Of a stretch of DNA of 64,000 nt, positions 13,698-57,159 are shown piece by piece. Position 1 is the stretch's first letter. Each line of letters opens with the position of its first letter. Both the position numbers and the translations under genes were made by a program. The notes beneath the pieces were generated by a model, which was given only the letters and a program-made list of their open reading frames with translations, searched no databases and had not been told where the DNA came from. Source of the stretch: Trueperaceae bacterium (GTDB lineage Bacteria > Deinococcota > Deinococci > Deinococcales > Trueperaceae); contig OZ243913.1 of assembly GCA_965213705.1 (NCBI GenBank), positions 1 through 64,000 of the forward strand, read 5' to 3'.

Positions 13698-13753
13698 ACT
13701 CGCGAAAGTATCAACCCAGCAACCGTAAGGCCGGTGACTATCGCTTTTTGGTT

Positions 13754-14000
13754 GAACCTGTGCAAAAAGTCTGGTGCTCAGGAGTGCTCAGCCGTTGCGG
13801 GTAGTCCCGCTTTCACAAATGTGGAGCACCAAGTCAGTCTTCCGTACACGCAATCCCAGCGCACTCCGAACGTTGGGATTGTTTCGCATTCGGACTTGGT
13901 CACCTTCGTTCGCAGTGTCCGAACCCCTTTGTGCGGCTTGGACGCCCTTGCGGTAAGTCTGAAACGTGGGGGCCGGGCGGTCTCAACCGTGGCGACTCCA
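13754..14000. other. Highly structured intergenic element (candidate ncRNA or MITE-like element)
   Basis: Five inverted-repeat pairs within ~150 nt, no credible ORF, and an IS-end-like GAACCTGTGCAAAAAGTC at the left edge. Confidence 0.4.
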
Positions 14001-28518: not shown

Positions 28519-28521
28519 ACG

Positions 28522-30462: not shown

Positions 30463-30614
30463 CGGCGTTCGCCGTTCGCTGTCGGACGAACGACCAAAGA
30501 CGAACATCGAACGAGGTTTTCTCAAAAAGCCGAGAGCGTTTAGTGTTAGGGTTAAACCCGCAGACTTGCACCACAGCCTCATACTGCAGCAGGCTCGTAC
30601 CCGAGACCTTACCG

Positions 30615-41271: not shown

Positions 41272-42446
41272 AGCGCAGACCTTCTCTCACCTCCCGCACG
41301 GTCACGCGCGCGGCCTTCGGCGTCATCATCGTGTTCGTGCTGGCGCAAGTGGTGTGGTGGATTATTTTTCAGAACCGCTATATTTCCGGGGTCACGTGGG
41401 ACACGCTCGCGGCTTGGCAGCAAGACGCTCGAGCGGCGAACGACGCCTTCAGCGCCATCCCCGACCCCGCCCTCGTTCAGTCGCTGCAAGCGGACTACCC
41501 ACACCTCCTGTTCGACGAAACCACAGGTACATTCAAGCTCAATCCTGAAGTCGTGGCGGCGTTTACCAACAGGCAAAACGGCTTCGTCCGCATGGTCGCC
41601 TTCGAGGGGCCGTTTTTCGTGCTCGTCGTGCTGGGCGGGCTCTACATCATCGCCAAGAGTTTACGCACCGAGCGCGAACTCAAGCGGCGGCAGCAAAACT
41701 TTTTGTCGGCCATCACCCACGAGTTCAAGACGCCGCTCAGCACGCTGCGGCTCCTCGTCGAAACTGTCCTCATGCGGAGTTTGCCGCCGGAGAAACAGCG
41801 GGACTATTTGTCCCGGATGGAAGGCGAGCTGACGCGGCTCGAGAGCACCAGCGAGCAAGTCCTCGCGGCGGCGCGGCTCGAGCAGTCGCGCACAGCCCCG
41901 CTGTTGGAACCCCTGGAAATGAACAGTGTCGTGCAGGGCGTGGTCGGGAGGTTGCGGGCGGGCCTCGAGGCGCGCGGCGCGCGTTTGAGCGTCGTCTACA
42001 GCCCCGAGCCGTTGCCCGTTTCCATCGACAGCAGCGCCTTCGCCGTGGTGCTCGGCAACCTCCTCGACAACGCGGTGAAGTACAGTCCGGGAGCCGAGAA
42101 AACCGTGACGGTGCGGCTGGTGCGCCAACGCGACCTCGTGATGACCCACGTCGAAGACCACGGCGTCGGCATTTCGGAGGGTGAGCGCAAGCGCGTGTTC
42201 GAGCGCTTTTACCGCGTCGGCAGCGAGATGACGCGCCGCTCGACCGGCGTCGGCTTGGGCTTGCACCTGGTTCGCAGCATGACCGAGGCGATGAACGGGT
42301 GGGTAAGGCTCGAGGCCAACACCCCCCAGGGCAGCCGCTTCACCGTCGTGCTGCCGCGCCGCGTCGTGGCGACGGCAGACGAACAAACGGACGAGCGAAC
42401 GGACGAACAAGGGGCGGAAACCTTCACCGTGAGCGGCCGAGCGTGA
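41268..42446 (+). CDS. Sensor histidine kinase
   Basis: Two TM helices, THEFKTPL (H box), NLLDNAVKYS, DHGVGI, FERFYR and GVGLGL motifs. Overlaps the hemB stop. Confidence 0.95.
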   Translation: MKRRPSLTSRTVTRAAFGVIIVFVLAQVVWWIIFQNRYISGVTWDTLAAWQQDARAANDAFSAIPDPALVQSLQADYPHLLFDETTGTFKLNPEVVAAFTNRQNGFVRMVAFEGPFFVLVVLGGLYIIAKSLRTERELKRRQQNFLSAITHEFKTPLSTLRLLVETVLMRSLPPEKQRDYLSRMEGELTRLESTSEQVLAAARLEQSRTAPLLEPLEMNSVVQGVVGRLRAGLEARGARLSVVYSPEPLPVSIDSSAFAVVLGNLLDNAVKYSPGAEKTVTVRLVRQRDLVMTHVEDHGVGISEGERKRVFERFYRVGSEMTRRSTGVGLGLHLVRSMTEAMNGWVRLEANTPQGSRFTVVLPRRVVATADEQTDERTDEQGAETFTVSGRA

Positions 42447-43204
42447 AGCCGACCGTTCTCATCATCGAAGACGAGGCGCTGCTGGCCGAGGTTTTGGTCG
42501 ACAACTTGGAGGCCGAGGGTTACGCTGTCACGGTCGCGCCGGACGGGCGGGCGGGTTTGGACGTGTGGCAACAGACGCGACCTAACCTCATCGTTTTGGA
42601 CGTGATGCTGCCTTTTATCGACGGCTACGAAGTGTGCCGGACGATGCGGGGTGCGGGCGACACGACGCCGGTTTTGTTCCTGAGCGCCAAGGGCCGGCCC
42701 GACGACCGGGTCGAGGGGCTCGCCGCCGGGGGTGACGACTACCTGCCCAAACCCTTTCACCTCCCCGAGTTTTTGCTGCGCGTGCAGAACATGTTGCGCC
42801 GTCAGGGTTGGGGACAGGATTGGAAACAGCGTTGGGGAGAGGCCGAGAAACAAGTGCCTACAGACTCGAGCTTCGCCTTCGGCGGACACCGGGTAGACTT
42901 TCGCACCTGGACGGCCGCGCTGGCGAGTGGCGCTGAGGAACCTTTGGGCGAGCGCGAACTCGGTATTTTTAGGTTGTTGGCGCACCGCGCGAACGAGGTT
43001 GTGAGCCGCGACGACATCCTGGACGCGGTCTGGGGCGACGACGCCTTCCCGAGCAGCCGCACGGTCGACAACTTCGTGGTTCGACTGCGCAAGCTGTTCG
43101 AGCCCGACCCCGGCCACCCGGTTTACTTTCACACGGTGTGGGGCGTGGGCTATAAATTTACGCCGGAAGGCGCGGGCGAACTGACCCTGAAAAACTCAAC
43201 TTAA
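42443..43204 (+). CDS. OmpR-family response regulator
   Basis: GTG start overlapping the HK stop. IIEDE, LDVMLP, DDYLPKPF, RTVDNFVVRLR and TVWGVGY motifs. Confidence 0.95.
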   Translation: MKPTVLIIEDEALLAEVLVDNLEAEGYAVTVAPDGRAGLDVWQQTRPNLIVLDVMLPFIDGYEVCRTMRGAGDTTPVLFLSAKGRPDDRVEGLAAGGDDYLPKPFHLPEFLLRVQNMLRRQGWGQDWKQRWGEAEKQVPTDSSFAFGGHRVDFRTWTAALASGAEEPLGERELGIFRLLAHRANEVVSRDDILDAVWGDDAFPSSRTVDNFVVRLRKLFEPDPGHPVYFHTVWGVGYKFTPEGAGELTLKNST

Positions 43205-44115
43205 ACGACGCTCGCTGAACGTTGTCCGCACGAGTCTTGTCCACAGGAGGCCAGGGGCGCGCCGCTCTCGAGCTGCAACGTCGTGTGGACGATTTCGAAC
43301 TCGTCGTGAAGCCCGCGCCGCGCCTGCACGATGAGGGCGTTGTTTTGCACCTCTTCCGGCACGACGAGGTGCGCGGTCAGCGCGGTCTCAGTCGTGCTCA
43401 TCGCCCAAATGTGCAGGTCGTGGACCTCGCTCACGCCGGGCAGGGTTTTCAGGTAGGCTCGCACCGCCTCCGGGTCGATGCCCTCGGGCACAGCGTCGAG
43501 CGACAGCCGCAGCGCGTCGCGGAACAAGCCCCAGGTGCTCCACAGCACCACCGCCACAATGACGAGGCTGATAACCGGGTCGAGCCAAACCGCGCCCGTG
43601 TAAAGGATGACGACTCCGGCGACCAGCACGCCCAGCGTCACGAGGCCGTCCGCCATCATGTGCAAAAACGCGCCGCGGATGTTGAGGTCGTCCTGGCCCT
43701 TGACGAACAGGTACGCCGTACCGAAGTTAACCACCAAGCCGACAAGCGTCACCCAGATAATCGTCGCGCCGGGTACGGGGGCGGGGTCTTGCAAGCGCCC
43801 GACGGCCTCCCACACGACCACGCCCATCGCGCCGAAGAGCAGCAGCGCGTTGAACAGCGAGGCGACGATGGGCGAACGTTTCAAGCCGTAGGTAAAGCGC
43901 TCCGAGGGCGGCCGCAGGGCCAAGCGCGCCCCCGCCCAGGCGATAATGAGGCTCAGCACGTCGCTGGCGTTGTGGCCCGCGTCGGCAATGAGTCCGAGCG
44001 AGCCGACCGACAAGCCCACCGCCGCCTCGACCATCACGTAAAGCGTGTTCAGACCGATGCCGACGGCAAAAGCCCGGCCGAAACTTTTGGGTGCGTGTGA
44101 GTGGTCGTGTGCTAT
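43201..44115 (-). CDS. Cation diffusion facilitator (CzcD-type Zn/Co/Cd efflux), apparent ATA start
   Basis: ADAGHNASD, NIRGAFLHMMAD, VHDLHIW and HTTLQLE motifs. The frame extends 26 codons upstream of 44037 to ATA-AHDHSHAPK. Confidence 0.9.
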   Translation of the reverse strand: MAHDHSHAPKSFGRAFAVGIGLNTLYVMVEAAVGLSVGSLGLIADAGHNASDVLSLIIAWAGARLALRPPSERFTYGLKRSPIVASLFNALLLFGAMGVVVWEAVGRLQDPAPVPGATIIWVTLVGLVVNFGTAYLFVKGQDDLNIRGAFLHMMADGLVTLGVLVAGVVILYTGAVWLDPVISLVIVAVVLWSTWGLFRDALRLSLDAVPEGIDPEAVRAYLKTLPGVSEVHDLHIWAMSTTETALTAHLVVPEEVQNNALIVQARRGLHDEFEIVHTTLQLESGAPLASCGQDSCGQRSASVV

Positions 44116-44359
44116 GGGTCTTGCCCCCTTCGAAAATGCGACTTGCAGTATAGCCCGCGAGAGGGGGCTGACCTCCTCGAGCCGTCATCTTTTGACTCGC
44201 TTACTCACCTTATGCCGCAGCTATCAGCCTGGAAAATGGGCCGATGAGGTTGAGGAAACAGAATGCAGAACGGGTTTGGTCGATTCTCCCTTCTGCACTC
44301 TGTTTCCTTTTTCTTCCCAGAATCCTCTGTAGAACAACGTGCTCGCGAAAGGTGCGTCA

Positions 44360-44953
44360 TCACTTGAGCCCCAGTGCTCCCAAAACGCTCGGTCTGATCA
44401 ACTTGTAAAACATCCTCGCCATCTCGTGTGGCGGGGTTTTCATGTCGTCCTCGAGCCAACCCGTGAGAACCGACAGCATCGCTCCGGCGACGAAGTCGGC
44501 TATGACGTTGGGCGGCACGGACGGTTTGACGCCGATGGTCTGAATCGCCTGGTGCGCGGTTTGCGACGCATAAAACCTCAAGCGTTGCAGCATGAGACCG
44601 CCGCCCTGGCCGTTCAGGACGACCCTGAAGAGGGCCGGGTCGCGCTGCACGACCTCGAACACGACCAGCGCGGGGTGCGGCGCGCCGCGCAGGAGGTCTT
44701 GGCTGGAGAATCCCTTGACCTCCTCGAGAATCCCCTCCACCAACGCATCGAACGAACTCAACAACAGGGCGTCTTTGTCGTCGAAATGCAAGTAAAAAGT
44801 CGCTCTCGCCACATCGGCCCGCTCGGTGATTTCGGTAACGGTGATGCTCTCGTAATTCTTTTCTAAAATCAGCGCCATCAGCGCGTCGAACAAGCGCCCC
44901 TGCGACCGCCGCACCCGCCGGTCCTTGGGGGTGGAACGTTCAGAAGTAGACAT
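44360..44953 (-). CDS. TetR/AcrR-family regulator
   Basis: DRRVRRS..LFDAL..ITVTEITERADVARATFYLHF HTH. Confidence 0.93.
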   Translation of the reverse strand: MSTSERSTPKDRRVRRSQGRLFDALMALILEKNYESITVTEITERADVARATFYLHFDDKDALLLSSFDALVEGILEEVKGFSSQDLLRGAPHPALVVFEVVQRDPALFRVVLNGQGGGLMLQRLRFYASQTAHQAIQTIGVKPSVPPNVIADFVAGAMLSVLTGWLEDDMKTPPHEMARMFYKLIRPSVLGALGLK

Positions 44954-45045
44954 ACACACCCTTCTGTCCAGTAGTAGACGTTTTCGCCCGGTTGTTCTTG
45001 ACGGGCCTTCCTTGCAGCCCCTACATTAACAGTGTGACCAATAGA

Positions 45046-45057
45046 AGACAACTGTCT
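45046..45057. promoter_or_regulatory. Candidate TetR operator
   Basis: AGACA-AC-TGTCT palindrome next to a TAAACT -10 box, between divergent TetR and monooxygenase genes. Confidence 0.45.
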
Positions 45058-45092
45058 ATAAACTGACGCTCGTTTGCGAAAGGGGTTGGACC

Positions 45093-46769
45093 ATGACCGG
45101 AAAAGGAACAGGAACTCTTACAGAGACGGACGTGCTCATCGTCGGAGCCGGTCCTACCGGCCTTACCGCCGCTACACTTTTGGCCCGCTACGGGGTGAAG
45201 TTTCGCATCATCGACAAAAACGCTGCGGCGGCTGAGAAGTCCAGGGCGCTGGGTGTGCAGGCGCGCACCCTGGAGCTGTGGGACAAGCTCGGTTTGGCTG
45301 AAGGTGCAGTGGCGCGCGGGCAAGCCCTGCAAGCCCTCAACCTCATTACGAAAGGCACGGTTGATGAAGGCGGTAGGCCGTTTATAGCGTTGGGGCGCGA
45401 CGGGAAGGACATCTCGCCCTACCCCTACCTGCTCATCCACGAGCAGAACAAGACCGAAAAGATGCTCTTAGCCGACTTAGCCGCTCAAATCGGACCAAAG
45501 GGTGCCTACGGCGTCGAGCGGGGTACCGAAATCGTGGGCCTTGTGCCTGCCGAAGACAAGGTGACGGTCGTCTTGCGCCACGAGGACGAACAGCGAGAGA
45601 CTGTAGAAGCGAAGTGGCTGATTGCCGCCGACGGCGCGAGCAGCTTTGTACGCAAGACGCTGGCCTTAGAGTTTGACGGCGCGACCTACGCCGACCCGCT
45701 GTTCGTGGCCGACGTGGACCTCGAGTGGCCCCTGTCACGCGACAAGTTTTACGCCCAGGTGCCGCGCCAGGGAATGCTGACCTTTTTTCCGATGCGCGGG
45801 GACGGCTACTCAGACAACCAGTACCGCATCATCGCGCGTATTCCAAGAGAGTTGGAGAGCAAAGACGAGCTTACGGGTGAGGACATCCAACAAATCTTAG
45901 ACAAGCACAGCGTCGTGAGAGCGAAAATTACCGCCACGCGCTGGGTGTCCAAGTACCGCATCCACCGCCGCATGACCAGGGCGTTTCGTGTCGGGCGTGT
46001 TTTTTTAGCGGGCGACGCGGCGCACATCCACAGTCCAGCCGGAGGTCAAGGGATGAACACGGGCATTCAAGACGCCTGGAAACTCGCCTGGAAACTCGCG
46101 CTCGTGGTGAAGGGTCAAGCGGCTGAAGAACTTTTGGAGAGCTACGAACTCGAGCGTATCCCCGTCGCTAAAGCCGTGCTGAACGGCTCGGACAAAGGCT
46201 TTTCTTTCATCGGCTCACCGAACTACGTTTTTCACCTGCTCCGCAGTGCCCTCCTGCCGCGCCTCACCAGCCTCGCTTCACGCGAAAGTGTTGGCAAGGG
46301 CATCTTCAAGTTTCTCTCGCAGACCTGGATTAACTACCGCAAGAGTCCGGCAGTGGGCAGCGACAAGGGCGCCAAACGGGTCAAGCCCGGCGACCGTGCG
46401 CCCTACGCACGCTTCACCTTGGGTGAGAGCGTCTATTCGCTGCTGCACGGCGTAGACCACCACCTGCTGCTCTTTGCAGGCCGGGGTGCTGACGTGGAGG
46501 CGGAGCGTGCGCGGGCCGAGGCGCAGCTGAACGACTACGGCGTCACAACGCGAGTACACGTTGTCGGCGCTAAAGAGACTGCTTTGCGCGAGGCGTACGG
46601 CGTGGACGAGCCCAGTGCGTTTCTGGTGCGTCCCGACGGACACGTCGCGTGGCGCGGCGCTGTGAGCTTGGATGACTTGGCATCTTACATGGACAGGTTT
46701 TACACACGTTGTACCGAAGCCGAGCAAAAGACAGCGCCCGCGCAGCCGAAGTTTGAGGTCGCCGTCTGA
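45093..46769 (+). CDS. FAD-dependent monooxygenase (aromatic hydroxylase-like)
   Basis: GAGPTG, ADGASSFVR, LAGDAAHIHSPAGGQGMNTGIQDA and C-terminal LVRPDGHVAW. Confidence 0.93.
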   Translation: MTGKGTGTLTETDVLIVGAGPTGLTAATLLARYGVKFRIIDKNAAAAEKSRALGVQARTLELWDKLGLAEGAVARGQALQALNLITKGTVDEGGRPFIALGRDGKDISPYPYLLIHEQNKTEKMLLADLAAQIGPKGAYGVERGTEIVGLVPAEDKVTVVLRHEDEQRETVEAKWLIAADGASSFVRKTLALEFDGATYADPLFVADVDLEWPLSRDKFYAQVPRQGMLTFFPMRGDGYSDNQYRIIARIPRELESKDELTGEDIQQILDKHSVVRAKITATRWVSKYRIHRRMTRAFRVGRVFLAGDAAHIHSPAGGQGMNTGIQDAWKLAWKLALVVKGQAAEELLESYELERIPVAKAVLNGSDKGFSFIGSPNYVFHLLRSALLPRLTSLASRESVGKGIFKFLSQTWINYRKSPAVGSDKGAKRVKPGDRAPYARFTLGESVYSLLHGVDHHLLLFAGRGADVEAERARAEAQLNDYGVTTRVHVVGAKETALREAYGVDEPSAFLVRPDGHVAWRGAVSLDDLASYMDRFYTRCTEAEQKTAPAQPKFEVAV

Positions 46770-46985
46770 ATTTCGAGGGGCTTCAAGATTCCAAACCTTT
46801 CAAGCTCGAGCCCAGAAAGGACGTACCGTGTTAAGACAACTCGTCAGAATGATTACAGGCGGTGACGGCGAAGCCGGGGGGCCGTGCGTGGGCGTCTTCC
46901 CCGCCAATGCAAGCCAGGGCTTCGTGGTACGTGAAAAGCTTGTGATATAGTGGCGCGTTGCGTACCACACGCTCGGAGGCCTCTC

Positions 46986-48266
46986 TTGTCAGATTCTCAG
47001 ACGTCAGACCCAATCCGCCAGCGCACCGTCTCGAGAACCACTCTGGGCGTCGTTGAAAAACCCAGTCCCGCCCGCGTCGACGACGTGTTCGCAAAAGCGT
47101 TCAACTTCACCCGCGCCGACGAGGCGGTGGCGGCAGGGATGCACCCCTACTTCAAACCTATCGCCTCGCAAAACGGCGGCACGGTCGTGGTGGGTGGTCG
47201 CGAAATGATCATCACCGGCTCGAACGACTACCTGGGTTTGACCCAGGACGGTCGCTTGAAAGAGTCCTCACGGCGCGCGCTCGACGACTTCGGGACGAGC
47301 TGCACGGGCTCGCGCTTTTTGACGGGCACCTTGACGTTTCACGACGACTTGGAACTGCGCCTCGCCAAGTTTTTGCAAAAGGAAACCGCGCTGACCTTCA
47401 GCGCCGGGTTTTTGGGCTGCTTGTCTGTCGTGAGCGTGCTGGCGGGTCGCCACGATATTTTGTACTTCGACCGCGAGAACCACGCCTGTCTTTACGACGG
47501 CGCGCGACTGTCGTTCGCCGCGCTGCGCAAGTACGAGCACAACGACGTCGCGGACTTAGAACGGCTGCTCGAGAAAGACAAAGATAAACCCGGCGGCCGG
47601 TTAATTGTCACCGACGGCGTGTTTTCGATGAGCGGACACATCGCCAAGTTACCGGAACTTGTCAAAGTCGCCCGCAAGTACGGCGCGCGAATTATCGTCG
47701 ACGACGCGCACGCGACCGGCGTTTTGGGCAAACACGGCCGCGGCAGCGCCGAGCACTTCGGGTTGAACGAAGAAGTCGACGTCATCGTCGGCACCTTTTC
47801 GAAGTCGTTCGCCTCGGTCGGCGGCTTTATGGCCGGGCCGCGCGAAGTGGTGAACTACGTCAAGCACAAGGCGCGGCCGTTTATTTTCACGGCGGCCTTG
47901 CCCGCCATGCAGATGGCGGCGGCCCTGAAAGCCTTAGACATCATGGAGACCGAGCCGCAGCACCGCGACCAGTTGTGGCGCAACGTGCGGCACTACCACC
48001 GGGGCATGAACGCTCTCGGCTTCGACACGCTGGGCACGCAAACACCAATCGTCCCCGTCGTCATCGGCGACGACGACATGACGCTGCTGTTCTGGCGCGA
48101 ACTGTGGGAAGAGGGCATTTTCACCACGCCGTCGGTGCCGCCCGCGGTGCCGCTGGGACAGAGCATCATCCGCACCTCGGTCAACGCCAACCACGAACCC
48201 CAGCACATCGACGGCATTTTGAGCGCGTTCGAGAAGGTCGGGAAGCGTCTGGGCGTCATCGGCTAG
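46986..48266 (+). CDS. spt: Serine palmitoyltransferase-like alpha-oxoamine synthase (PLP)
   Basis: SD GGAGG then in-frame TTG 46986. HPYFKPI..GSNDYLGL, GTSCTGSRFLTGT, NHACLYDG, DGVFSM, DDAH and GTFSKSF motifs. Neighbours are bCerS- and CerR-like genes. Confidence 0.8.
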   Translation: MSDSQTSDPIRQRTVSRTTLGVVEKPSPARVDDVFAKAFNFTRADEAVAAGMHPYFKPIASQNGGTVVVGGREMIITGSNDYLGLTQDGRLKESSRRALDDFGTSCTGSRFLTGTLTFHDDLELRLAKFLQKETALTFSAGFLGCLSVVSVLAGRHDILYFDRENHACLYDGARLSFAALRKYEHNDVADLERLLEKDKDKPGGRLIVTDGVFSMSGHIAKLPELVKVARKYGARIIVDDAHATGVLGKHGRGSAEHFGLNEEVDVIVGTFSKSFASVGGFMAGPREVVNYVKHKARPFIFTAALPAMQMAAALKALDIMETEPQHRDQLWRNVRHYHRGMNALGFDTLGTQTPIVPVVIGDDDMTLLFWRELWEEGIFTTPSVPPAVPLGQSIIRTSVNANHEPQHIDGILSAFEKVGKRLGVIG

Positions 48267-48278
48267 CCCGGCCGTCTT

Positions 48279-49388
48279 ATGCTCGCCGTCCGTCCCGTCA
48301 AGGCCAAAGCCGACTTAATCAGGTTCATCGAGTACCCGTACCGAAAGTACCGCACCGACCCCCATTGGGTGCCGCCCTTACGCATGAGCGAGCGCGAGCG
48401 CTTCGACGAGAAGAAAAACCCGTTTTTCGAGCACGGCTGCATGGAGCTGTTTTTAGCTGAGCGTGACGGTCACGTCGTGGGGCGCGTCGCGGGCATCGAC
48501 GACGACCTTCACAACGAGACGCACGGTGACAACACGGCTTTTTTCGGCTTTTTCGAGGCGGAGGACGCGGGGGTGGCTCGAGCCCTCTTAACACAAGTCG
48601 AAACCTGGGCCGCAAGCTTGTCGCGCAGCGCCCTACGCGGCCCCACCAACCCCACCATGAACGACGGCGCGGGCTTTCAAATCAACGCCTTCGACACCGA
48701 CCCCTACGTCATGATGCCCTACAACCCGCCCGAGTACCCGGCTTTTGTCGAGGCGGCGGGCTACCGCAAAATCAAAGACCTCTACGCCTGGTACTTGGGC
48801 TCCGACGTGGGTCCGAGCGAGCGGCTGCTGCGCCTCGCCGACCGCGCCGCGAAACGGTACAGCTTTACGATTCGCCCCGTGCAGATGAAACATTTCGACA
48901 AAGAGGTCGAGCGCGTGCTCGGTTTTTACAACGACGTCTGGGAAAAGAACTGGGGCCAGACGAAGTACACGCCCAAGGAAGCCGAAATCCTCGCCAAAGA
49001 ACTTAAACTTATCGTCGACCCCGAAATGGTGCTGATGTTGGAAATAGAGGGCGAGCTGGCGGGCGTCGCGGTGGGCTTTCCCAACGCCAACCAGCTGTTC
49101 AAAAAAATGAACGGACGACTCTTGCCCTTCGGTATATTTTACGCGCTGCGAGCTAAAAAAATCATGAACGAGATGCGCCTGCCGATTTTGGGCGTCAGGC
49201 CCGAGTACCGCAACAAGGGTTTGGAGCTGGCCCTCATCGCCGAGTTTTGCCGCCGGGGCATCGCGCGGGGCTACACCGGGGCCGAGTGCTCGTGGATTTT
49301 GGAGGACAACGAAGCCATGAACAAGGGCATCGCCGCGGCGGGCGCGGAGCTTTACAAGACGTACCGGCTTTATCAGAAAGAGCTATGA
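48279..49388 (+). CDS. Bacterial ceramide synthase-like GNAT N-acyltransferase
   Basis: 369 aa with DPHWVPPL..E..KNPFF, VGRVA, FFGFFE, MPYNPPEY, KDLYAW, WEKNWG, NGRLLPFG, LGVRPEYRNKG, SWILEDN and KTYRLY. Confidence 0.8.
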   Translation: MLAVRPVKAKADLIRFIEYPYRKYRTDPHWVPPLRMSERERFDEKKNPFFEHGCMELFLAERDGHVVGRVAGIDDDLHNETHGDNTAFFGFFEAEDAGVARALLTQVETWAASLSRSALRGPTNPTMNDGAGFQINAFDTDPYVMMPYNPPEYPAFVEAAGYRKIKDLYAWYLGSDVGPSERLLRLADRAAKRYSFTIRPVQMKHFDKEVERVLGFYNDVWEKNWGQTKYTPKEAEILAKELKLIVDPEMVLMLEIEGELAGVAVGFPNANQLFKKMNGRLLPFGIFYALRAKKIMNEMRLPILGVRPEYRNKGLELALIAEFCRRGIARGYTGAECSWILEDNEAMNKGIAAAGAELYKTYRLYQKEL

Positions 49389-49500
49389 CAGGAGGAAGGA
49401 GAAAGGAGAAAGGAGAAAGTGAAGTCACAAACTTTTTCCCCTCTGCTTCTCGGCTCCCCTGCTCCTCCGCCCTGCTACTTGAAGGTGCAGCGACTCAGCT

Positions 49501-50448
49501 GTGAAGCCCCGCGTTCTCCTTACCGGCGCGTCGGGGTTTGTGGGCAGCCACGTCGCCCACAGCTTGGTCGAGGCGGGCTACGCGCTGCGCTGCGGCTTGC
49601 GGCCGACGAGCGCGCGGCGCTGGCTGGAGGGGCTGGACTACGAGCCGGTTTCGCTCGACTTGCAAGACTTAGGCGGGCTCGAGCGCGCCTGCGGCCGCGT
49701 CGACTTAGTCGTCCACGCGGCCGGGGTCACGCGGGCCAAGGACGACGCGACCTTTTTTCGGGTCAACACCGAGGGCACCCTGAACTTGGCGCGGGCGGCG
49801 CAGCGCGCGGGCGTGAGCCGGTTCGTTTTTGTGAGCAGTTTAGAAGCGCGCGGGCCGGACCATGCGAGCGGGCCGGACAGCCCTTACGGACACAGTAAAC
49901 TGGACGCCGAAGGTGGGTTGCGGGCGTTTGGTGAGGGCCTCGAGGTCGTCGTACTGCGACCGGCCGGAGTCTACGGGCCGCGCGACACCGACTTGCTGCC
50001 CCTGTTCAAACTGGCAAAGCTAGGTTATTTGCCCGCCCCCGCGGGCGGCGGCGTGTTGCAACCGGTTCACGCCCACGACGTGGCCGGGGCGGTGATAGCC
50101 GCGGCTTCACGCGCCGCGCGTTTCGGGCCGTTTCCGGTCGCCGAACCGCGCAGCTACACTTGGCCGGAAGTGGGGCAAGGTTTAGAAGCGGCGTTGGGGC
50201 GCAAGGTGAGGACGATAAAGGTGCCTCCGGCTGTTTTTTTGACGGCGGGGTACGGGTTGGAAAGCGTCGCCAAACTGCTCGGCCGGACGCCTCAACTCGA
50301 CAGCCGCCGGGCGCGCGCTCTCGCCGTCCACACCTACACCTGCGACGTGTTGACAACGCAGCGCGACCTCGCCTGGCAACCGCGCTACCCCTTGAGCGCA
50401 GGTCTGGCGCAAACAGCGCGGTGGTACGAACAAAAAAGCTGGCTCTAA
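49501..50448 (+). CDS. Extended SDR / NAD-dependent epimerase-dehydratase, candidate ceramide reductase (CerR-like)
   Basis: TGASGFVG, HAAG, YGHSK (YxxxK) and LRPAGVYGPRD motifs. Third gene of the spt run. Confidence 0.7.
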   Translation: MKPRVLLTGASGFVGSHVAHSLVEAGYALRCGLRPTSARRWLEGLDYEPVSLDLQDLGGLERACGRVDLVVHAAGVTRAKDDATFFRVNTEGTLNLARAAQRAGVSRFVFVSSLEARGPDHASGPDSPYGHSKLDAEGGLRAFGEGLEVVVLRPAGVYGPRDTDLLPLFKLAKLGYLPAPAGGGVLQPVHAHDVAGAVIAAASRAARFGPFPVAEPRSYTWPEVGQGLEAALGRKVRTIKVPPAVFLTAGYGLESVAKLLGRTPQLDSRRARALAVHTYTCDVLTTQRDLAWQPRYPLSAGLAQTARWYEQKSWL

Positions 50449-50648
50449 AAAAGTTGGTGTGGGTGGGGACGGGCTTCATACCGATGGTAGTAACAAAACG
50501 GCGGCAAAACCGCGGTGACAAGGGCGCCTGTACCCAGGCTGGGTGCGCCAAACAAACGAGTTTTCGAGACGGAAACGGTGATAAACTCGCTCTAGGCCGG
50601 GGAAGAGCGGGGCGCTGAGCCCACGCCTACCGGTACGGTAGGGAAGCT

Positions 50649-51671
50649 ATGAAGTCTGCGGTTGTGATGGCAGGACTGAGCGTGGTGTTCGGGGTCGTCG
50701 GGCTGGTTCTGGTCGTCGGTGACGACGTGTTTCGCCCTGAAACCTACGTTCTCACTCACTACAGTCCCGGCTTGGCACTGCTGGCACTGTTGGCTTTTAT
50801 CACCGCTTGGTTGGCACCTGCGTTTAGAATCCAGCTGCTGTGCCGTGAGCGCGTCACCCTTCCCTTTTGGCGGGCACTGCTGGTCCAGCTTGCGACTTCG
50901 TTCGGGGCCGCCGTGACGCCGGGCAAGTCGGGGGCCGGGGTCGCCGGGACCGCGGCCCTGAGTACCTTGGGCTTTTCGGTCGGCCAAAGTTTCAACATCG
51001 CCGTTCAACAGGCTTTGCTCGACCTCGCGTTTTACAGCTGGGCGTTGCCGTTGAGCCTCGCCTACCTCGTTTTGAGCGACAAGTTTAAACTCCCTTTGAG
51101 CCTGGAACTTGCCGGCTTGGCGCTTGCGCTCGGTTTGGTTATAGCTTTGCTGTTTCGGCGAAAAGTGCCCGAGTTGCTGTTGCGCGTGGCTTTGACGGCG
51201 GCGCGGCTGCCCCTGCCGGGGCGCGTCAGGCTGTGGTTGCAGCGCGCAACCCACGACTACTACCGGAGCGCTCAAACCGAGTTCAGGCTCAGCCGCACAG
51301 GGTGGTTGGGCGCGCATGTAGCGACGGCGGTGGGCTGGCTGAGCAACTATGCGCTGCTGTGGGCGCTGCTCAAGTTGGACGGGGCCGAGGCCGCGTTGTC
51401 GGGCGTGGTGGCGGTGTTGACGCTGGTGTCCGTTACCGCCAACATCGTGCCGACGCCGGGCGGCTCCGGTTTTATAGAAGTGGCGGTGGGTTTGGCGACG
51501 CAGGCGCAAAGTTCAAGCCGAGTCGCCGCCGCACTGTTGCTGTGGCGACTCGGTACCTTTTACATCATCTTTTTTATCGGTCCTTTCGCGAGTTGGTTGC
51601 TGTACCGTAACCGCTCCGCACAGTTGACGCGGCCCCGCGCCGGAGTCAGGTTGAACGAGCGAGATGTTTGA
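50649..51671 (+). CDS. Flippase-like (LPG synthase TM / UPF0104) membrane protein
   Basis: AAVTPGKSG, PTPGGSGFIE and LLWRLGTFY motifs. Polytopic. Confidence 0.85.
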   Translation: MKSAVVMAGLSVVFGVVGLVLVVGDDVFRPETYVLTHYSPGLALLALLAFITAWLAPAFRIQLLCRERVTLPFWRALLVQLATSFGAAVTPGKSGAGVAGTAALSTLGFSVGQSFNIAVQQALLDLAFYSWALPLSLAYLVLSDKFKLPLSLELAGLALALGLVIALLFRRKVPELLLRVALTAARLPLPGRVRLWLQRATHDYYRSAQTEFRLSRTGWLGAHVATAVGWLSNYALLWALLKLDGAEAALSGVVAVLTLVSVTANIVPTPGGSGFIEVAVGLATQAQSSSRVAAALLLWRLGTFYIIFFIGPFASWLLYRNRSAQLTRPRAGVRLNERDV

Positions 51672-52917
51672 CGTGCCGAGCGTTCACTTAGAGGACGCCG
51701 TGAGCGTGACCGGTTTGACCTCGCCCGTTCGCGTCGCCCTGTTTACCGGCGCTTACAACCACATTGCCGACGGGGTGTCTCTGACCCTCAACCGCTTGGT
51801 CCATTACCTAGAAACGCAAGGACACAGCGTGCGCGTGTTCGCGCCGACGGTTCGCGAACCCGAACTGAGCCACAAAGGCACCCTGATACCGGCGTGGTCC
51901 GTACCGGCCCCGGGCCGCCCCGACTACCGCTTGGCGTTGGGTTTGTCGCCGAAAGCGCGCCACGCCCTCAGCGGCTTCGACCCGGACTTGTACCACGTCG
52001 CCACCCCCGACCTGCTGGGCCACCAGGCGCTGCGCTTGGCGCGGCGCTCGGGCAAGCCCGTCGTCGCTTCTTATCACACGCACTTCAGTTCCTACCTGGG
52101 CTATTACGGCTTGGGCAGGCTCGAGCCCCCGCTGTGGTGGGCCTTGCGCCGCTTTTACCGCCGCTGCGACCAGGTTTACGTGCCGACGGCTTCGGTTGCC
52201 GCAAGCCTGCGCGACCACGGCGTCACCGAAGGGCTGCGTTTGTGGCCGCGCGGCGTCGACGCCGCGCGCTTCAACCCTGCTCGGCGCTCTTTTGCCTGGC
52301 GGCGCGCCCACGGAATCGCCGACGACGAGACCGTGCTGATTTTCGTCAGCCGCCTGGTCTGGGAAAAGGGTTTGGAAACGCTCGCTGAAACCGTCGAGGC
52401 GTTGCAACGGCGCGGCGTTCCCCACCGCAGCGTCGTCGTCGGCGACGGGCCGGCCGGTCCGTCGCTGCAACGTCGGCTTCAGCAAACGGTCTTTACGGGT
52501 CGCTTGGAAGGTGCCGAACTTGCAACCGCCTACGCCTCGGCCGACCTGTTTTTGTTTCCGAGCGAGACCGAGACGTTCGGCAACGTGGTTTTAGAGGCGA
52601 TGGCCTCCGGCTTGGCCGCCGTCTGCGCCGACGCGACCGGCAGCCGCGACCTGCAAGTGACGGGGGTAACCGGTTACCTCGTTCCCCCGGGCGACAGCTC
52701 CAGCTTTGCCGAAAAAACTGCGGCGCTCCTGACTCGGCCCAGCCTCCGCCGCGACTTGGCCGACGCTGCTTACGAGCGGTCACAAACCTACCACTGGGAG
52801 GCGGTGCTGGCGCGCGTTGCCGGGTACTACCAGCAGGTGTTGGCGGGACGGGCCACGGAGGGCCGAGCGCCGACCGAACGCGGCCCGGCGGTCAACCGAA
52901 ATAGTCCTCGAGGATGA
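51664..52917 (+). CDS. GT4 glycolipid glycosyltransferase (MgtA/PimB-like)
   Basis: DGVSLTL, HVATP, ASYHTHF, WPRGVD..RFNP, VSRLVWEKG and ETFGNVVLEAMASG motifs. Confidence 0.9.
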   Translation: MFDVPSVHLEDAVSVTGLTSPVRVALFTGAYNHIADGVSLTLNRLVHYLETQGHSVRVFAPTVREPELSHKGTLIPAWSVPAPGRPDYRLALGLSPKARHALSGFDPDLYHVATPDLLGHQALRLARRSGKPVVASYHTHFSSYLGYYGLGRLEPPLWWALRRFYRRCDQVYVPTASVAASLRDHGVTEGLRLWPRGVDAARFNPARRSFAWRRAHGIADDETVLIFVSRLVWEKGLETLAETVEALQRRGVPHRSVVVGDGPAGPSLQRRLQQTVFTGRLEGAELATAYASADLFLFPSETETFGNVVLEAMASGLAAVCADATGSRDLQVTGVTGYLVPPGDSSSFAEKTAALLTRPSLRRDLADAAYERSQTYHWEAVLARVAGYYQQVLAGRATEGRAPTERGPAVNRNSPRG

Positions 52918-53761
52918 CTTTGGTGCTTTTGTACTTCCAGTGCCAGCGCCGCCGCGCACCTACGCCTGCGGTCGTCGCGTTTTGGTGATGGCGCACGACC
53001 AAGTCGGGCAGCCACCACACTTGCAAGTCGGCGTTGCGCGCTTGTTCTGCCAGGTGCACCTCTTCAAAGTACATAAAGCCGCGGTACTCGAGGGTCAGCG
53101 CCTCCAACAAGCGGTCTTTCAAAAACACGGCGCTGCCGTGAGGTGCGTAAATTTTCGCGGGTGCGGCGTTCAGGTGCGCACGTTTGAACGCGTCGAGCTT
53201 TTGCTTGGTCACGAAGCCCAAGTCCCAGAGTCGGCTCAGCGGCACGCTGCGCCACACCCACATATACAGGTAAAGCAAAAAACGGGCCGGGCGCGAGCGC
53301 ATAAACGGGTTTTGCCGCGCGCCGTTGTCCAGCAGCACGTTCGGAGCGACGATGCCCACGTCTTCAGGCAAAACGTGCGCGGCCAAACGGTAAAAAAAGT
53401 CGGCGGCGAACTCCAAGTCGGTGTTGACGACGCCCAGCCAAGTCGGGAGCGTTTTGTGCTCGGCCCGCCAGGCCCGGTAGGCGAAAGCGCAGCCGCCCAA
53501 GTAACCCACGTTGCGGCTTTTATAAACGCTCACGCCGGCCGGGAGCGGTTCTTCGTTCGTCCAGGAAGCGCTGCTGTCTGCAACGGCGACAGCCAAACGC
53601 CAACCCGGCGGCAGGGGAAGTCCCTGCAGGTGCGCGACAAAACGGCGCACCTGCGCCTCGTTGTGGTAGTGAACACAGCTCAGCAGGACGGTTACGGCTG
53701 GGTTGCCGTTCTGGTCACCGTTCGTGGCTGCGGCGTCCCGGGTTGAAAGGTCGTCACTCAA
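52892..53761 (-). CDS. GT2-like glycosyltransferase
   Basis: NVGYLGG, VVNTDL, QNPF, APHGSAVF and FMYFEE motifs. Confidence 0.75.
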   Translation of the reverse strand: MSDDLSTRDAAATNGDQNGNPAVTVLLSCVHYHNEAQVRRFVAHLQGLPLPPGWRLAVAVADSSASWTNEEPLPAGVSVYKSRNVGYLGGCAFAYRAWRAEHKTLPTWLGVVNTDLEFAADFFYRLAAHVLPEDVGIVAPNVLLDNGARQNPFMRSRPARFLLYLYMWVWRSVPLSRLWDLGFVTKQKLDAFKRAHLNAAPAKIYAPHGSAVFLKDRLLEALTLEYRGFMYFEEVHLAEQARNADLQVWWLPDLVVRHHQNATTAGVGARRRWHWKYKSTKVILEDYFG

Positions 53762-53965
53762 AGTCGGTCTCTTCCAGTCGCTCGCTTACATCGCTTTCGG
53801 CCGTGCGCCGCTTTGCTCCGGGCCGGGTCGAAAGCTCGAGCGCGTCGTAAAAACCCAGCCACTCTAGCACAGAACAGCGTTTTTTCTGAGCAGGGGCGGT
53901 ACTTGGGCGGTTCGTTGCCGGGGAGCGCGTTCGGGGGCGGCACGTTTGTGTCATGATAGCCAGGC

Positions 53966-55201
53966 ATGACCCCAGCGACGACCCTCTTGCCGACCCGCGC
54001 TTCGGCTCTCAAAGCCAAGCTGCTCTTCGCCACCATAGCAGCGGGCGGCGGTCACGTCGCGACGGCCGAGGCGATGGCGGCGGCTGTGACGCGCCACTAC
54101 CCAGGGCAGTTGGAGGCGGTTGTCACGGACTACATGAAAGAGGTCGGCAACCGCGAAGCCGCTGTCGCGGCGTTTGACGAGCGCCACAAAGAGTTGTGGA
54201 AAAGAGCCTTGCGTTTTCCCTTGTCGGCGCGCTTGGGCCAGCGGCTTATCGACGCGCTGCCCAACCTCACCGTAAAAGTGCAGCGGCGCTTTTTGGCCCG
54301 CTTTGCCGAGGTCGCCGCGGCCGACTTGGCGGAGCGACGCCCCGACTTGGTCGTTTCGAATCACGGGCTGATAACGACCGGTTTGGCACTTGCCAAACGC
54401 GACTACGGCCTCAGGGTTCCCGTACTGACTTTTGCAACCGAAACGCACAACATCAGCGCCTACTGGGCCGACCCCGAGGCGGACCACATGTTGGTACCGA
54501 ATAGGGGCGTGCTCGCCGACTTAAACCGCATGGGCGTGCCGCTTGACAAGATGGACGTGGTCGGCTACCCGGTGCAACAAGCGTTTTTGCAAGCTCCCGA
54601 CAAAACGGAGGCTCGAGCCCGCCTCGGCCTCTCAATCCGGTTTACCCTCCTCGTTTCGCTCGGCGGCGAGGGCATCGGCGGCGACCCGCTCCAAACGGTG
54701 CGGGTGCTCGCCGCCGCGCGGCCCCACGCCCAAATCCTGGTGATGTGTGGCCGCAACGAAACGCTGCAGCGTAAAGTCGCCGCGCTGCAAGCCCCCAACT
54801 TGCGCGCTTACGGCTTCAGCCGGGACATGGCCGTCTTTTTGGCGGCGAGCGACGTCGTGGTCGGCAAGGCCGGCCCGGCGTCGGTCTACGAAACGCTCGC
54901 GGTGGGCCGGCCCCTGCTGATTACGAGTTATGCCGGCCTCAACGAACAAGGCGTGACTCGGTTCGTCGCCGAACAGGGTCTGGGGCATTACGTTTCCTCG
55001 ACAGCTGCGCTTTTGAAAGCTTTGAGTCTTTACGAGCGAGGCGACCCGGACCAGGGCAATCCGCAAAGCGACAGGGTTCAAGACGTAGCAGCGCGTTGCC
55101 GCGCCCTCGACCTCAAGGGGCAGACCGACGCCGTAGCGCAAGCCATCTGGGGTTACCTGAACCGGTTCAAACCTACACCTTACCAGGACGTGTGGGTTTA
55201 A
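53966..55201 (+). CDS. GT28 MGDG-synthase/UgtP-like glycolipid glycosyltransferase
   Basis: GGGHVATAEA, VVGYPV, LGGEGIG, CGRNE and DVVVGKAGPASVYE motifs. Confidence 0.88.
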   Translation: MTPATTLLPTRASALKAKLLFATIAAGGGHVATAEAMAAAVTRHYPGQLEAVVTDYMKEVGNREAAVAAFDERHKELWKRALRFPLSARLGQRLIDALPNLTVKVQRRFLARFAEVAAADLAERRPDLVVSNHGLITTGLALAKRDYGLRVPVLTFATETHNISAYWADPEADHMLVPNRGVLADLNRMGVPLDKMDVVGYPVQQAFLQAPDKTEARARLGLSIRFTLLVSLGGEGIGGDPLQTVRVLAAARPHAQILVMCGRNETLQRKVAALQAPNLRAYGFSRDMAVFLAASDVVVGKAGPASVYETLAVGRPLLITSYAGLNEQGVTRFVAEQGLGHYVSSTAALLKALSLYERGDPDQGNPQSDRVQDVAARCRALDLKGQTDAVAQAIWGYLNRFKPTPYQDVWV

Positions 55202-55208
55202 GAAATCC

Positions 55209-56225
55209 ATGCGCAAAAGGTACTGGCTGACGGTCATCATCTCCGTCGTGTTCGGCGCATTCGCGCTGTGGCTGGTGTTGCCGGAGGCTTTCGCGCCGGC
55301 CAGCCTGGCAACATTGCGGCGTCTGACAAGTCATCACTACGCGGCCGTCGCACTCGTCATAACGGGCTGGTGGTCGGCGGCGGCCGTGCGCTTTATGCTG
55401 CTCAGCCACGCTGTCGGACGGCCCATCCGTTTTCACCAGGGCGTCCGGGTGACTTTAGCGGGTATTTTCGCCGCGACCGTCACGCCTTCGGGTGGGGGCA
55501 GCGGCGTGGGAGTAGCCCTCAGCCTGAACCGCTACGGCTTGTCGCTACACGAGGCCGTCGCCGTGACCACCCTCACCCTGACCCTCGACTTAGCTTTTTT
55601 CACCTGGGCGGTGCCCGCCTCGTTTTTTTACTTGTTGGCCGAGGGTGTGCGCTTGCCCGGCGAAAACTTAGGCGCCTTGGTCGTGGTCGTGTCGCTGGTT
55701 CTGCTGGCGCTGGGCTACCTCGTGACGTTTCGACTGGCGCTGTTGAGCCGAGGTTTGAAAAGAGTCGCGTTTTTGTCGCTTCTGCGCCCGTTGCGGCGGC
55801 GTTTGCTGCGCTTCGTGAACGAGCTGACGACGGCGCACGCGCTGTTCAATGGGCGGGGGGGTTTGGAACACCTGAGTTTTCACCTGTTGACCCTCCTGAC
55901 CTGGCTTTTCCACCTCGGGCTTTTGAACGTGGTGGCTTGGGCGCTCGAGCTGGGCATTCCCCCCCTGGAGTTGCTGGCGCTGCAACTGCTGATTTTAGTC
56001 TTGTCGTTTGCCATCCCCACGCCCGGCGGCAGCGGTTATTTGGAAGCCGCCCTCGCGCTGGCCCTCAGGGGCGACGCGCCCGCCCAGACCCTGTCGGTGG
56101 CGGTGGTGGTGTGGCGCGTGTTCGGCTACTACTTGTATTTTTTGGTCGGCCCCTTGAACAGCTTTACGCTGCTGGCCCGGCGGCGCGGGCCGCGGGCCGC
56201 ACGGGTCAGCCCACCTGATCGATAG
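55209..56225 (+). CDS. Second flippase-like (LPG synthase TM / UPF0104) membrane protein
   Basis: ATVTPSGGG, PTPGGSGYLE and VVWRVFGYY motifs. Paralogous to 50649-51671. Confidence 0.85.
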   Translation: MRKRYWLTVIISVVFGAFALWLVLPEAFAPASLATLRRLTSHHYAAVALVITGWWSAAAVRFMLLSHAVGRPIRFHQGVRVTLAGIFAATVTPSGGGSGVGVALSLNRYGLSLHEAVAVTTLTLTLDLAFFTWAVPASFFYLLAEGVRLPGENLGALVVVVSLVLLALGYLVTFRLALLSRGLKRVAFLSLLRPLRRRLLRFVNELTTAHALFNGRGGLEHLSFHLLTLLTWLFHLGLLNVVAWALELGIPPLELLALQLLILVLSFAIPTPGGSGYLEAALALALRGDAPAQTLSVAVVVWRVFGYYLYFLVGPLNSFTLLARRRGPRAARVSPPDR

Positions 56226-57159
56226 GCAGCTTACCTAACGCGTAAGCGACCCTACGCCGGTTCGCTTCGGACAGAAAAGTCCGTAGCGTCGTGCCGGCAA
56301 AAGCCGGATACACCCGCGCGCGCGTGGCCTCGCTTACGTCGCGGCGGCCGAGTTTTGCAGCCAAACCGCGCGCGTCCCGCCCTACCTTGAAGACATCCTG
56401 GGGCCGACCCGCCGCGGCCAGGTGAAAAAAACCCGCCAGGTAGCGCCCGGCGAGCATCTCGAGCCGCTCCACCCCGCGAAAGTACCGCATGATTGTAACG
56501 AGGTCGTTGCGAAACGGCAGGTAAGCCTGGTGCGGCTTGATGCTGGCGCGCGCCTGGTAGAGGTGATAAACCGGGGCGTCCGGCAAAAAGTCGGCCTCCC
56601 AACCGTGCGCCAGCACTTCGATGGTCGTCGGAATTTCGGTGGCGTACATAAAGTAGCCCGGCGGGCTCAGCGGCACTTGCGACAAGACCGCGCGCCGAAA
56701 CACGACCGCGCCCGCGAAAAAACCGCGCGCGGGCGCATAGCTGTGGCCGGCGCGAACCTCCGGCAAGTACGGCGTGTAGGCCGTGCGCCCGGACACGGGT
56801 TCGACAAAAGGCAGCGCCACCATGCCGAGCCTTTCGCCCCGTTTTTCAAAGTGGGCGACGACCTTGGGCAGCGTGTCTTCGTGGGGGTAAGCGTCATCGT
56901 CGAGTTCGAACACGAGGTCGCCGGTCACGTGTCGGAGCGCGTCCCCCAACCCGTCGAAGCCGCGCGGCGCGTCGTGGCGGCACACTTTGACCCCCGGAAA
57001 GTCGTTCAGCATGGCGGCGGTGCCGTCTCGAGAGCCGTCGTCGACCACGACGACCTCGCGCGCAGGACCGGGCAACGTCTCCAGACGGGTCAGCAACCGC
57101 CGCAACGTGTCCCGCCGCGCGTGGGTCGGAATCAAAAAGGTAACGACGGGCTCGAGCAC
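56206..57159 (-). CDS. GT2 glycosyltransferase
   Basis: LIPTHAR, VVVDDGSRDGT, LDDDAY and FMYATE motifs. Confidence 0.88.
   Translation of the reverse strand: MLEPVVTFLIPTHARRDTLRRLLTRLETLPGPAREVVVVDDGSRDGTAAMLNDFPGVKVCRHDAPRGFDGLGDALRHVTGDLVFELDDDAYPHEDTLPKVVAHFEKRGERLGMVALPFVEPVSGRTAYTPYLPEVRAGHSYAPARGFFAGAVVFRRAVLSQVPLSPPGYFMYATEIPTTIEVLAHGWEADFLPDAPVYHLYQARASIKPHQAYLPFRNDLVTIMRYFRGVERLEMLAGRYLAGFFHLAAAGRPQDVFKVGRDARGLAAKLGRRDVSEATRARVYPAFAGTTLRTFLSEANRRRVAYALGKLPIDQVG

Follow-up and report, generated by a model that had tools for sequence, protein, structure and literature searches.

Does the genome of a Trueperaceae bacterium, a relative of Deinococcus within the phylum Deinococcota, encode a pathway for making, glycosylating and translocating a sphingolipid? 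The question is raised by a block of nine open reading frames at positions 46986-57159 of the window (i.e., the 64,000-nucleotide stretch of DNA analyzed here), whose placement in Trueperaceae bears out the Deinococcota-like origin proposed in an earlier note on this sequence. We found no report of sphingolipids in Truepera, the Deinococcota or Rubrobacter among the titles and abstract openings searched, and the sole lipid description found for the family lists unidentified glycolipids (PMC3072082). The pathway is already known, and it is the lineage for which no sphingolipid report was found. Since predicted producers are already distributed over 40 phyla (PMC11334938), adding a further lineage is only modestly surprising. 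We favor the reading that the block likely makes a dihydroceramide, which would carry one or a few sugars and be flipped across the inner membrane.

All nine frames are intact, and eight have Pfam support. The first three are consecutive and co-oriented, as claimed in the earlier note, and comprise an Spt-like alpha-oxoamine synthase (AOS; 46986-48266, plus strand, 426 aa from a TTG, with the frame open from a GTG at 46950), a tandem GNAT N-acyltransferase of the bCerS/YghO family (48279-49388, plus strand, 369 aa) and a CerR-like extended SDR, hereafter type B (49501-50448, plus strand, 315 aa; PF01370). They are followed by a flippase-like membrane protein of the UPF0104/LPG_synthase_TM family (flippase 1; 50649-51671, plus strand; PF03706, 81 bits; TIGR00374 above cut-off), a GT4 retaining glycosyltransferase that overlaps it by 8 nt (51664-52917, plus strand; PF13439/PF00534, EX7E motif), an accessory, divergent GT2-like glycosyltransferase (52892-53761, minus strand), a GT28 MGDG-synthase-like inverting glycosyltransferase that belongs to the conserved core of the cluster (53966-55201, plus strand; PF06925 and PF04101), a second UPF0104/LPG_synthase_TM protein starting 7 nt past it (flippase 2; 55209-56225, plus strand; PF03706, 100 bits) and a GT2 glycosyltransferase convergent on flippase 2 (56206-57159, minus strand; PF00535). 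Intergenic gaps are, in gene order, 12, 112, 200, -8, -26, 204, 7 and -20 nt. The four glycosyltransferases and two flippase-like genes previously described are thus all present, while their order differs from that description, with flippase 1 preceding the GT4 gene and both GT2 genes on the minus strand; because of these two genes, the block is not one operon. A promoter scan of the block found none, and terminator-like matches were uninformative. GC and GC3 of the block are in line with those of the flanking genes, which, together with the family-wide occurrence of the core, rules out a recent foreign island.

The AOS is a serine palmitoyltransferase homologue, predicted to condense serine with an acyl thioester. 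Its best structural and profile matches are the SPTs of Sphingobacterium multivorum and other Bacteroidota (PDB 3a2b/8guh, 357 bits, vs. 261 for Kbl and 194 for BioF; NF047600, top-scoring of 16 NCBIfam families). However, the scores are below the cut-offs of the NCBIfam Spt equivalogs (446/640 for NF047600, 388/500 for NF047599 and 308/670 for NF047603), and the genes are clustered in Trueperaceae but not in Bacteroidota. In a quick tree of 62 rows (HemA and SulA absent; Alicyclobacillus BioF as the BioF reference), the AOS falls inside a 45-row Spt clade with E. coli BL21 Spt (SH-aLRT 100), separate from Kbl and BioF; clustering with either of these was the refuting test named in the earlier note. 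The protein carries a GTFSKS PLP-lysine motif along with H166, S109, N80, R396 and A303. All side-chain contacts of PLP-serine reported for SPT (Asn52, Ser81, His138, Ser185, Thr241, Ser243 and Lys244; PMC10196870) are kept (N80, S109, H166, S214, T270, S272 and K273), and Met271, a main-chain contact, is replaced by I300, the same as in E. coli Spt. We consider it extremely improbable that the enzyme is instead BioF or Kbl, as public annotations have it, with unrelated neighbors. Many close homologues do bear the JGI label '8-amino-7-oxononanoate synthase', and this is the single AOS of the host genome, but the tree and the motif speak against such a function, as do the lack of bioD in that genome, its below-cut-off matches for bioB and tdh, and the separate Kbl-type paralogues of several family genomes. 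A large set of 'BioF' annotations is probably wrong. A homologue search with a Truepera MAG Spt named no cultured Truepera among the matches listed.

A SulA/CapB cysteate acyltransferase was also ruled out: A303 occupies the position of the diagnostic Lys281, 30 residues past the catalytic lysine (PMC9304779), and PDB 28eh scores 258 vs. 357 for SPT. A related concern is that the enzyme might take alanine, glycine or some different amino acid in place of serine, giving a 1-deoxy or other amino-lipid. The divergence of the clade, which is below all Spt cut-offs and has the Asn85 and Asn117 positions replaced (T113 and C145, the latter standing for a near-universal AOS Asn throughout the clade), would fit such a substrate, and the S. 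multivorum enzyme binds several amino acids, with alanine use described. Yet the side-chain serine contacts are kept, Asn117 is nowhere named in PMC10196870, the SulA lysine is absent, and a 1-deoxy lipid would offer no C1 hydroxyl to the tightly linked GT28, so that we regard a non-serine substrate as quite unlikely.

With the E. coli BL21 proteins as the reference, each of the three enzymes has a reciprocal best match: the AOS with Spt, the GNAT with YghO and the SDR with the epimerase (39, 36 and 30% identity, respectively). BL21 Spt has been assayed, and the other two BL21 genes have been named orthologues of those in Caulobacter (PMC9386255). The GNAT aligns with YghO, its sole reciprocal match, over its full length (36% over 377 aa, E 7e-74), inside the homology filter used for bCerS (E <= 1e-30, >= 50% coverage; PMC11334938), and its predicted model (pLDDT 87) resembles tandem GNAT folds; no solved bCerS relative was found by sequence. 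It is a bCerS homologue with predicted N-acylation of a long-chain base. The SDR shows a modest link to CerR: it is the reciprocal best match of the ECD_02852-type epimerase (pairwise E 6e-33) and groups with SDRs of spt clusters (SH-aLRT 87), the commoner type-A SDR falling outside that group. Reciprocal matches, tree and active-site residues thus agree in pointing to the Spt/bCerS/CerR homology put forward earlier, i.e., to the three-enzyme core of Caulobacter crescentus and E. coli BL21 (spt CC_1162/ECD_02854; cerS/bCerS CC_1154/yghO; cerR CC_1164/ECD_02852). In contrast to these systems, the Trueperaceae locus carries GT28 and UPF0104 genes instead of acpR/aasR and lptF/G, its Spt lies in a separate clade, and two exchangeable reductases are found across the family. 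The description of the locus as self-contained is weakened by the lack of an acyl-carrier or acyl-ACP synthetase gene; the host genome has no match to E. coli AcpR at E 1e-4, and its AasR matches reach just 23-30%.

The host locus is one version of a cluster that occurs across the family and is not special to the host genome. bCerS is found in 104 of the 127 other family genomes and in 0 of 216 from three other families of the order (f2-f4), and among 35 family loci, chosen from the bCerS matches, 30 have spt as the gene immediately preceding bCerS, so that the arrangement is no accident. Of the 104 positive genomes, 93 encode an SDR of type A or type B, never both; that is, two distantly related putative reductases occupy the third slot of the core. 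The GT28 gene is present in 93/127 family genomes, 92 of the 93 being bCerS-positive (92/104 of bCerS-positive vs. 1/23 of bCerS-negative genomes, kin not being independent), and sits in 26 of the 35 loci; a UPF0104-family flippase does so in 24. A GT28 match was missing from 12 bCerS-positive family genomes and from both genomes tested outside the family. GT28 and a flippase are strongly linked to the ceramide core. As for the remaining glycosyltransferases, orthologues of GT4 occur in 2/127 family genomes and those of GT2 in 21/127, the convergent position after a flippase being repeated in three genomes (G265, G276 and G266), and the GT2-like gene, which has no Pfam or NCBIfam match (ESM Atlas 0.99 to GT2 clusters), is confined to the host genus among the loci examined.

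Alternatively, the core might make ceramide while the glycosyltransferases and flippases serve mainly diacylglycerol, PG or long-chain diols, that is, two adjoining lipid pathways. The PDB matches of GT28 are MGD1 and a processive DAG glucosyltransferase, its solved relatives acting on diacylglycerol; the top NCBIfam matches of the GT4/flippase pair are the GlcN-PG genes gpgS/gpgF, with scores below cut-off (157/480 to GlcNAc-PG synthase for GT4); genome G018 has a GT2 orthologue without spt and bCerS; and Rubrobacter taiwanensis has the trio with no GT28 match. We nevertheless find this arrangement unlikely, given that the GT28 clade resides in most of the bCerS loci examined and is missing from 216/216 genomes of the bCerS-less families, and that a separate GT4 paralogue and two further UPF0104 genes are encoded in the host genome. 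Members of these bCerS-less families are rich in glyceroglycolipids. Pseudomonas gpgSDF and C. difficile hexSDF likewise encode a GT4 lipid glycosyltransferase with a UPF0104 protein; however, they modify glycerolipids, the Trueperaceae genes score far below cut-off, and the block has no deacetylase gene. The cluster is also an unlikely source of 1,2-diols or alkylamines, as Thermus/Meiothermus have diols and family f4 is without the cluster, and a simple reading as LPS replacement was ruled out, since the genome encodes lpxD/C/A/B-like and msbA-like genes.

Returning to a glycosylated ceramide, its described glycosyltransferases (Caulobacter Sgt1, Zymomonas/Sphingobium GlcA transferases, B. 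fragilis BF9343_3149) share the GT4 family with one enzyme of the block, a likeness of family and of Sphingomonadaceae matches rather than of characterised sequences, whereas the conserved glycosyltransferase of Trueperaceae is GT28; no GT28 ceramide glycosyltransferase was found in the parts of the literature searched. The best plasmid-collection matches of the GT4 are from Sphingomonadaceae (41-45%), it groups with uncharacterised Sphingomonas GT4s away from its own-genome paralogue (10 rows), and its orthologue in genome G358 likewise follows a type-B SDR. The flippases, termed paralogous in the earlier note, do belong to one family (profile above cut-off, multi-pass membrane proteins), yet their mutual identity is just 32%; flippase 1 shares 40% identity with flippases adjoining a type-B SDR or GT28 in Rubrobacteraceae loci and in genome G021. 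For standalone UPF0104 proteins, GpgF included, lipid flipping still awaits verification (PMC12713373).

The same gene order, with a type-B SDR, recurs in another phylum, in uncharacterised clusters of Rubrobacter (R. radiotolerans plasmid NZ_CP007515.1 and R. taiwanensis), with identities to the host proteins of 70-71% for Spt, 58-59% for the GNAT and 53-54% for the SDR, the range over Rubrobacter cluster SDRs being 51-55%; some Rubrobacteraceae loci also have GT28 and a flippase, and the cluster is present in just 28/104 genomes of its class. Gene order and identities point to an spt-GNAT-SDR core shared across phyla, between Trueperaceae and Rubrobacter, in either direction. In unconstrained trees the Rubrobacteraceae sequences fall within Trueperaceae, but a single Trueperaceae clade is not rejected by AU tests (p 0.26 and 0.68). 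Both are radiation- and desiccation-tolerant lineages.

Under the favored reading, Spt would condense L-serine with acyl-CoA or housekeeping acyl-ACP to 3-ketosphinganine, with an acyl chain that is likely branched, judging from the fatty-acid profile of T. radiovictrix. The tandem GNAT would N-acylate the Spt product and the SDR reduce its 3-keto group, the order of acylation and reduction being debated even in Caulobacter. The conserved GT28 would place a beta-linked hexose on the C1 hydroxyl. A parallel product with an alpha-linked hexose or hexuronate would come from the accessory GT4, a head group would be extended by the GT2 enzymes, and the two UPF0104 proteins would carry the products to the outer face of the inner membrane. 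GT4 and GT28 more likely yield parallel products than one chain, because the studied lipid members of both families add the first sugar. The suggestion of up to four sugars is accordingly weak: GT4 and GT28 come from families that prime lipids, the two GT2 genes are read from the other strand, and the GT4 and GT2-like genes are rare additions.

A broader model can be advanced tentatively, and as a whole we hold it to be possible rather than probable: a glycosphingolipid made by GT28 would define the envelope of Trueperaceae, and likewise that of a second family of the order. It would be old in Deinococcota, absent from the lines of Deinococcus and Thermus, and exchanged between Trueperaceae and Rubrobacter; the UPF0104 proteins would be the inner-membrane sphingolipid flippases that have long been sought, and the two SDR types, though distantly related, would be interchangeable at the CerR step. 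The locus supplies candidates for an inner-membrane flippase, a GT28 ceramide glycosyltransferase and a second reductase type; no inner-membrane sphingolipid flippase has been identified in Caulobacter (PMC11087976), and another candidate has been proposed (PMC11324152). The same trio is found in cultured Rubrobacter strains. If our reading is true, about four fifths of the Trueperaceae genomes sampled would have sphingolipid as an ordinary constituent of the membrane, and a sugar-bearing sphingolipid would be a common, undescribed membrane lipid of the family.

The nine-gene lipid locus proposed in the earlier note (window 46986..57159) was borne out, with all nine ORFs present and intact and with matches to Aminotran_1_2, GNAT, Epimerase, LPG_synthase_TM (both flippase-like proteins), GT4, GT28_C/MGDG_synth and GT2 in Pfam, the one ORF without a Pfam label being GT2-like by language-model features. 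The spt, GNAT, SDR, flippase 1 and GT4 genes are on the plus strand, as are GT28 and flippase 2, and both GT2 genes are on the opposite strand. GC3 is 0.76-0.82 for the locus genes, inside the 0.73-0.84 that the flanking genes span, and the host assembly is one contig of 4.25 Mb, 98% complete. A Trueperaceae MAG has the same set of nine genes, its proteins 77-96% identical to those of the window and its DNA 77-89% identical into both flanks. The assignment of the host to Deinococcota held as well, the window Rel being nearest to that of a same-family genome (74% identity; the Rel of Rubrobacter reaches 45% and those of three other families in the order 53-54%). The genes 5' of the cluster (window 40162-46769; hemB-like, a two-component pair, a cation efflux gene, TetR and an FAD monooxygenase) and 3' of it (pyruvate dehydrogenase E1 genes) appear unlinked to it.

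The alpha-oxoamine synthase (AOS) could in principle be a BioF or Kbl enzyme rather than a serine palmitoyltransferase (Spt). Its closest solved structures are SPTs (357 bits), ahead of a Thermus-type AOS (310), Kbl (261), cysteate acyltransferase (258) and BioF (194); the AOS of family f4 of the phylum scores 779 bits against PDB 7poa, presumably the Thermus thermophilus enzyme. Judged by this score together with genome counts and sizes, f4 is probably Thermaceae, f2 Deinococcaceae and f3 Marinithermaceae. A 62-row quick tree places the window AOS among 45 rows that form one clade (SH-aLRT 100) and include E. coli BL21 Spt and homologues from Bacteroides/Parabacteroides; the Kbl and BioF rows fall outside it. 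It carries the GTFSKS motif, SPT-characteristic according to the part of PMC10196870 consulted, keeps in alignment the side-chain residues that the same source places around PLP-serine, and has Ala at the position of Lys281, the residue diagnostic of SulA (PMC9304779, in part). The top NCBIfam model is the Bacteroidota Spt, and no NCBIfam model reaches its cut-off. A point against Spt identity is the replacement of two conserved Asn positions, one by T113 (in 20/20 family and 9/9 Rubrobacter-side rows) and the other by C145, where the residues are C/S or A/M. The host genome search returned no other AOS and no bioD, with bioB and tdh not above cut-off. Hence, the Spt reading held against BioF and Kbl.

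For the other two enzymes, the E. coli BL21 cluster region was taken as the reference for reciprocal searches; PMC9386255 (in part) gives yghO as the counterpart of Caulobacter CC_1154 and ECD_02852 as that of CC_1164. The window Spt, GNAT and SDR are reciprocal best hits of E. coli Spt, YghO and the epimerase (39, 36 and 30% identity), in agreement with the Spt/bCerS/CerR homology suggested earlier. The predicted structure of the GNAT, at pLDDT 87, agrees with tandem GNAT folds, and the SDR groups at an SH-aLRT of only 87 with cluster SDRs from E. coli, Streptomyces, Aureispira and Acidobacteriota. A ceramide-type backbone is very probable. The three-enzyme ceramide pathway was already known (PMC11087976, in part), and the window cluster is a variant of it. 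Predicted producers have been extended to 40 phyla by PMC11334938, whose main text does not mention Deinococcota. According to PMC3072082 (in part), T. radiovictrix has a complex lipid mix, uncompared, in which diol-like compounds accompany glycolipids and phospholipids. Among the titles and abstract starts listed by a literature search, none reports sphingolipids from Truepera, Deinococcus or Rubrobacter.

The core is family-wide. Searching 364 genomes of the phylum with the GNAT (E <= 1e-20), we found bCerS in 104/127 genomes of the family (host left out), 19/19 of f5 and 1/1 of f6, and in none of f2 (0/125), f3 (0/23) or f4 (0/68); the bCerS, SDR_A and GT28 tallies include one unpublished genome (G330). 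One homologue (G341:C8:2887-3987) has several in-frame stops and is frameshifted, broken or an assembly error. In two f5 genomes examined, spt and bCerS sit on different contigs. bCerS hits were used to pick 35 family loci, some of which stop at contig edges (one type-B SDR just below the 40% filter was excluded). Of these loci, 30 have spt immediately upstream of bCerS, 26 contain a GT28, 24 a UPF0104 gene, 22 an Rce1-like gene, 7 a GT2 and 6 glf. GT28 itself occurs in 93/127 family genomes (92 of these 93 bCerS-positive), 4/19 of f5 and 0/216 of f2-f4.

Two architectures were observed. The commoner type A reads spt-bcerS-Rce1-like-SDR_A-GT28-(glf)-flippase, and type B, that of the window, has SDR_B. 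In the type-A locus L053, the Rce1-like gene (PF02517; 12119-12847) lies between bCerS and SDR_A (12855-13859), which occupies the reductase slot that SDR_B fills in type B (window 49501-50448, plus strand); no Rce1-like gene was found in the host. SDR_A is present in 80/127 family genomes and SDR_B in 14/127 plus the host; the two are ~30% alike, and genera g10 and g24 each hold both types. No genome carries both, where ~11 of the 104 bCerS-positive would be expected under independence, a count in which kin are related, thresholds unequal and top candidates alone scored. The same slot and this mutual exclusion suggest that both carry out the reduction. The glf gene (UDP-galactopyranose mutase; L053:15076-16185, also in L022, L056, L112, L118 and L125) hints at head groups with galactofuranose; a 64% identical glf is elsewhere in the host genome (3304719-3305801).

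The spt-GNAT-SDR_B order also occurs in R. taiwanensis and, on a plasmid, in R. radiotolerans, at 70-71% (Spt), 58-59% (GNAT) and 53-54% (SDR) identity to the window. That is, the Rubrobacter trio is about as close to the window as many family members are while Rel is not, which indicates that the trio moved between phyla. The patchiness of bCerS in the class of Rubrobacter (28/104 genomes, 7 of the 28 unpublished: G383, G446-G450 and G461) and free trees favor Rubrobacter as the recipient, although AU tests leave the alternative standing. On the R. radiotolerans plasmid (NZ_CP007515.1, L052:10707-16299) an LTA-synthase-family gene comes after the trio, and its product could attach a head group of the phosphoglycerol type. 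Plasmids of other taxa carry related genes: a Streptomyces plasmid (L088:5001-9527) has the trio followed by a condensation-domain protein, and Priestia plasmids have a Spt-clade AOS (46% to the window AOS; L092:4998-6212 in Priestia megaterium) next to acyltransferase and methyltransferase genes; a bCerS homologue was not detected within that 11-kb locus.

The GT4 and GT28 families prime a lipid hydroxyl. GT28 has MGD1 and the processive DAG glucosyltransferase as its nearest solved structures, and GT4 has its nearest plasmid-collection matches in Sphingomonadaceae, with a true orthologue in just 2/127 family genomes, in one of them again directly after SDR_B. GT4 overlaps the flippase 1 gene (-8 nt) and flippase 2 follows GT28 at +7 nt. 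GT2 adjoins the cluster in other genera too, and was also found in one genome without the core. GT4 enzymes are the described bacterial ceramide glycosyltransferases (PMC9692976, PMC13318209; both in part). The product is probably glycosylated by the linked GT28/GT4. Since both are priming enzymes, each with its own flippase gene, two parallel mono-glycosyl products, perhaps lengthened by the GT2s, would fit better than one four-sugar chain, which we consider unlikely; the earlier note was otherwise mostly sound, its chain of up to four sugars being the weak part. Even for the standalone UPF0104 protein that has been studied, flipping is a prediction (PMC12713373, in part).

Lpt paralogues carry sphingolipids in Caulobacter, and the window holds, 15 kb upstream of spt, a third gene of the LptF/G family (30543-31745), preceded by two ORFs (218 and 646 aa) without a Pfam match (stretch 27862-31745). 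Elsewhere the host has an lpx-like block, lpxD-lpxC-Gfo/Idh/MocA oxidoreductase-lpxA-lpxB-like-msbA-like (G000:C1:229403-237277), in which lpxD is above cut-off and lpxA above one cut-off. LpxC is found in 23/24 family genomes, 4/4 of f5, 0/4 of f2, 1/4 of f3 and 2/4 of f4; the controls, T. thermophilus and D. radiodurans, gave no match. The locus is of greater interest as a trait of the whole family than as a lone locus and, because the genome carries this block, the predicted lipid would lie alongside a lipid A-like molecule rather than replace one.
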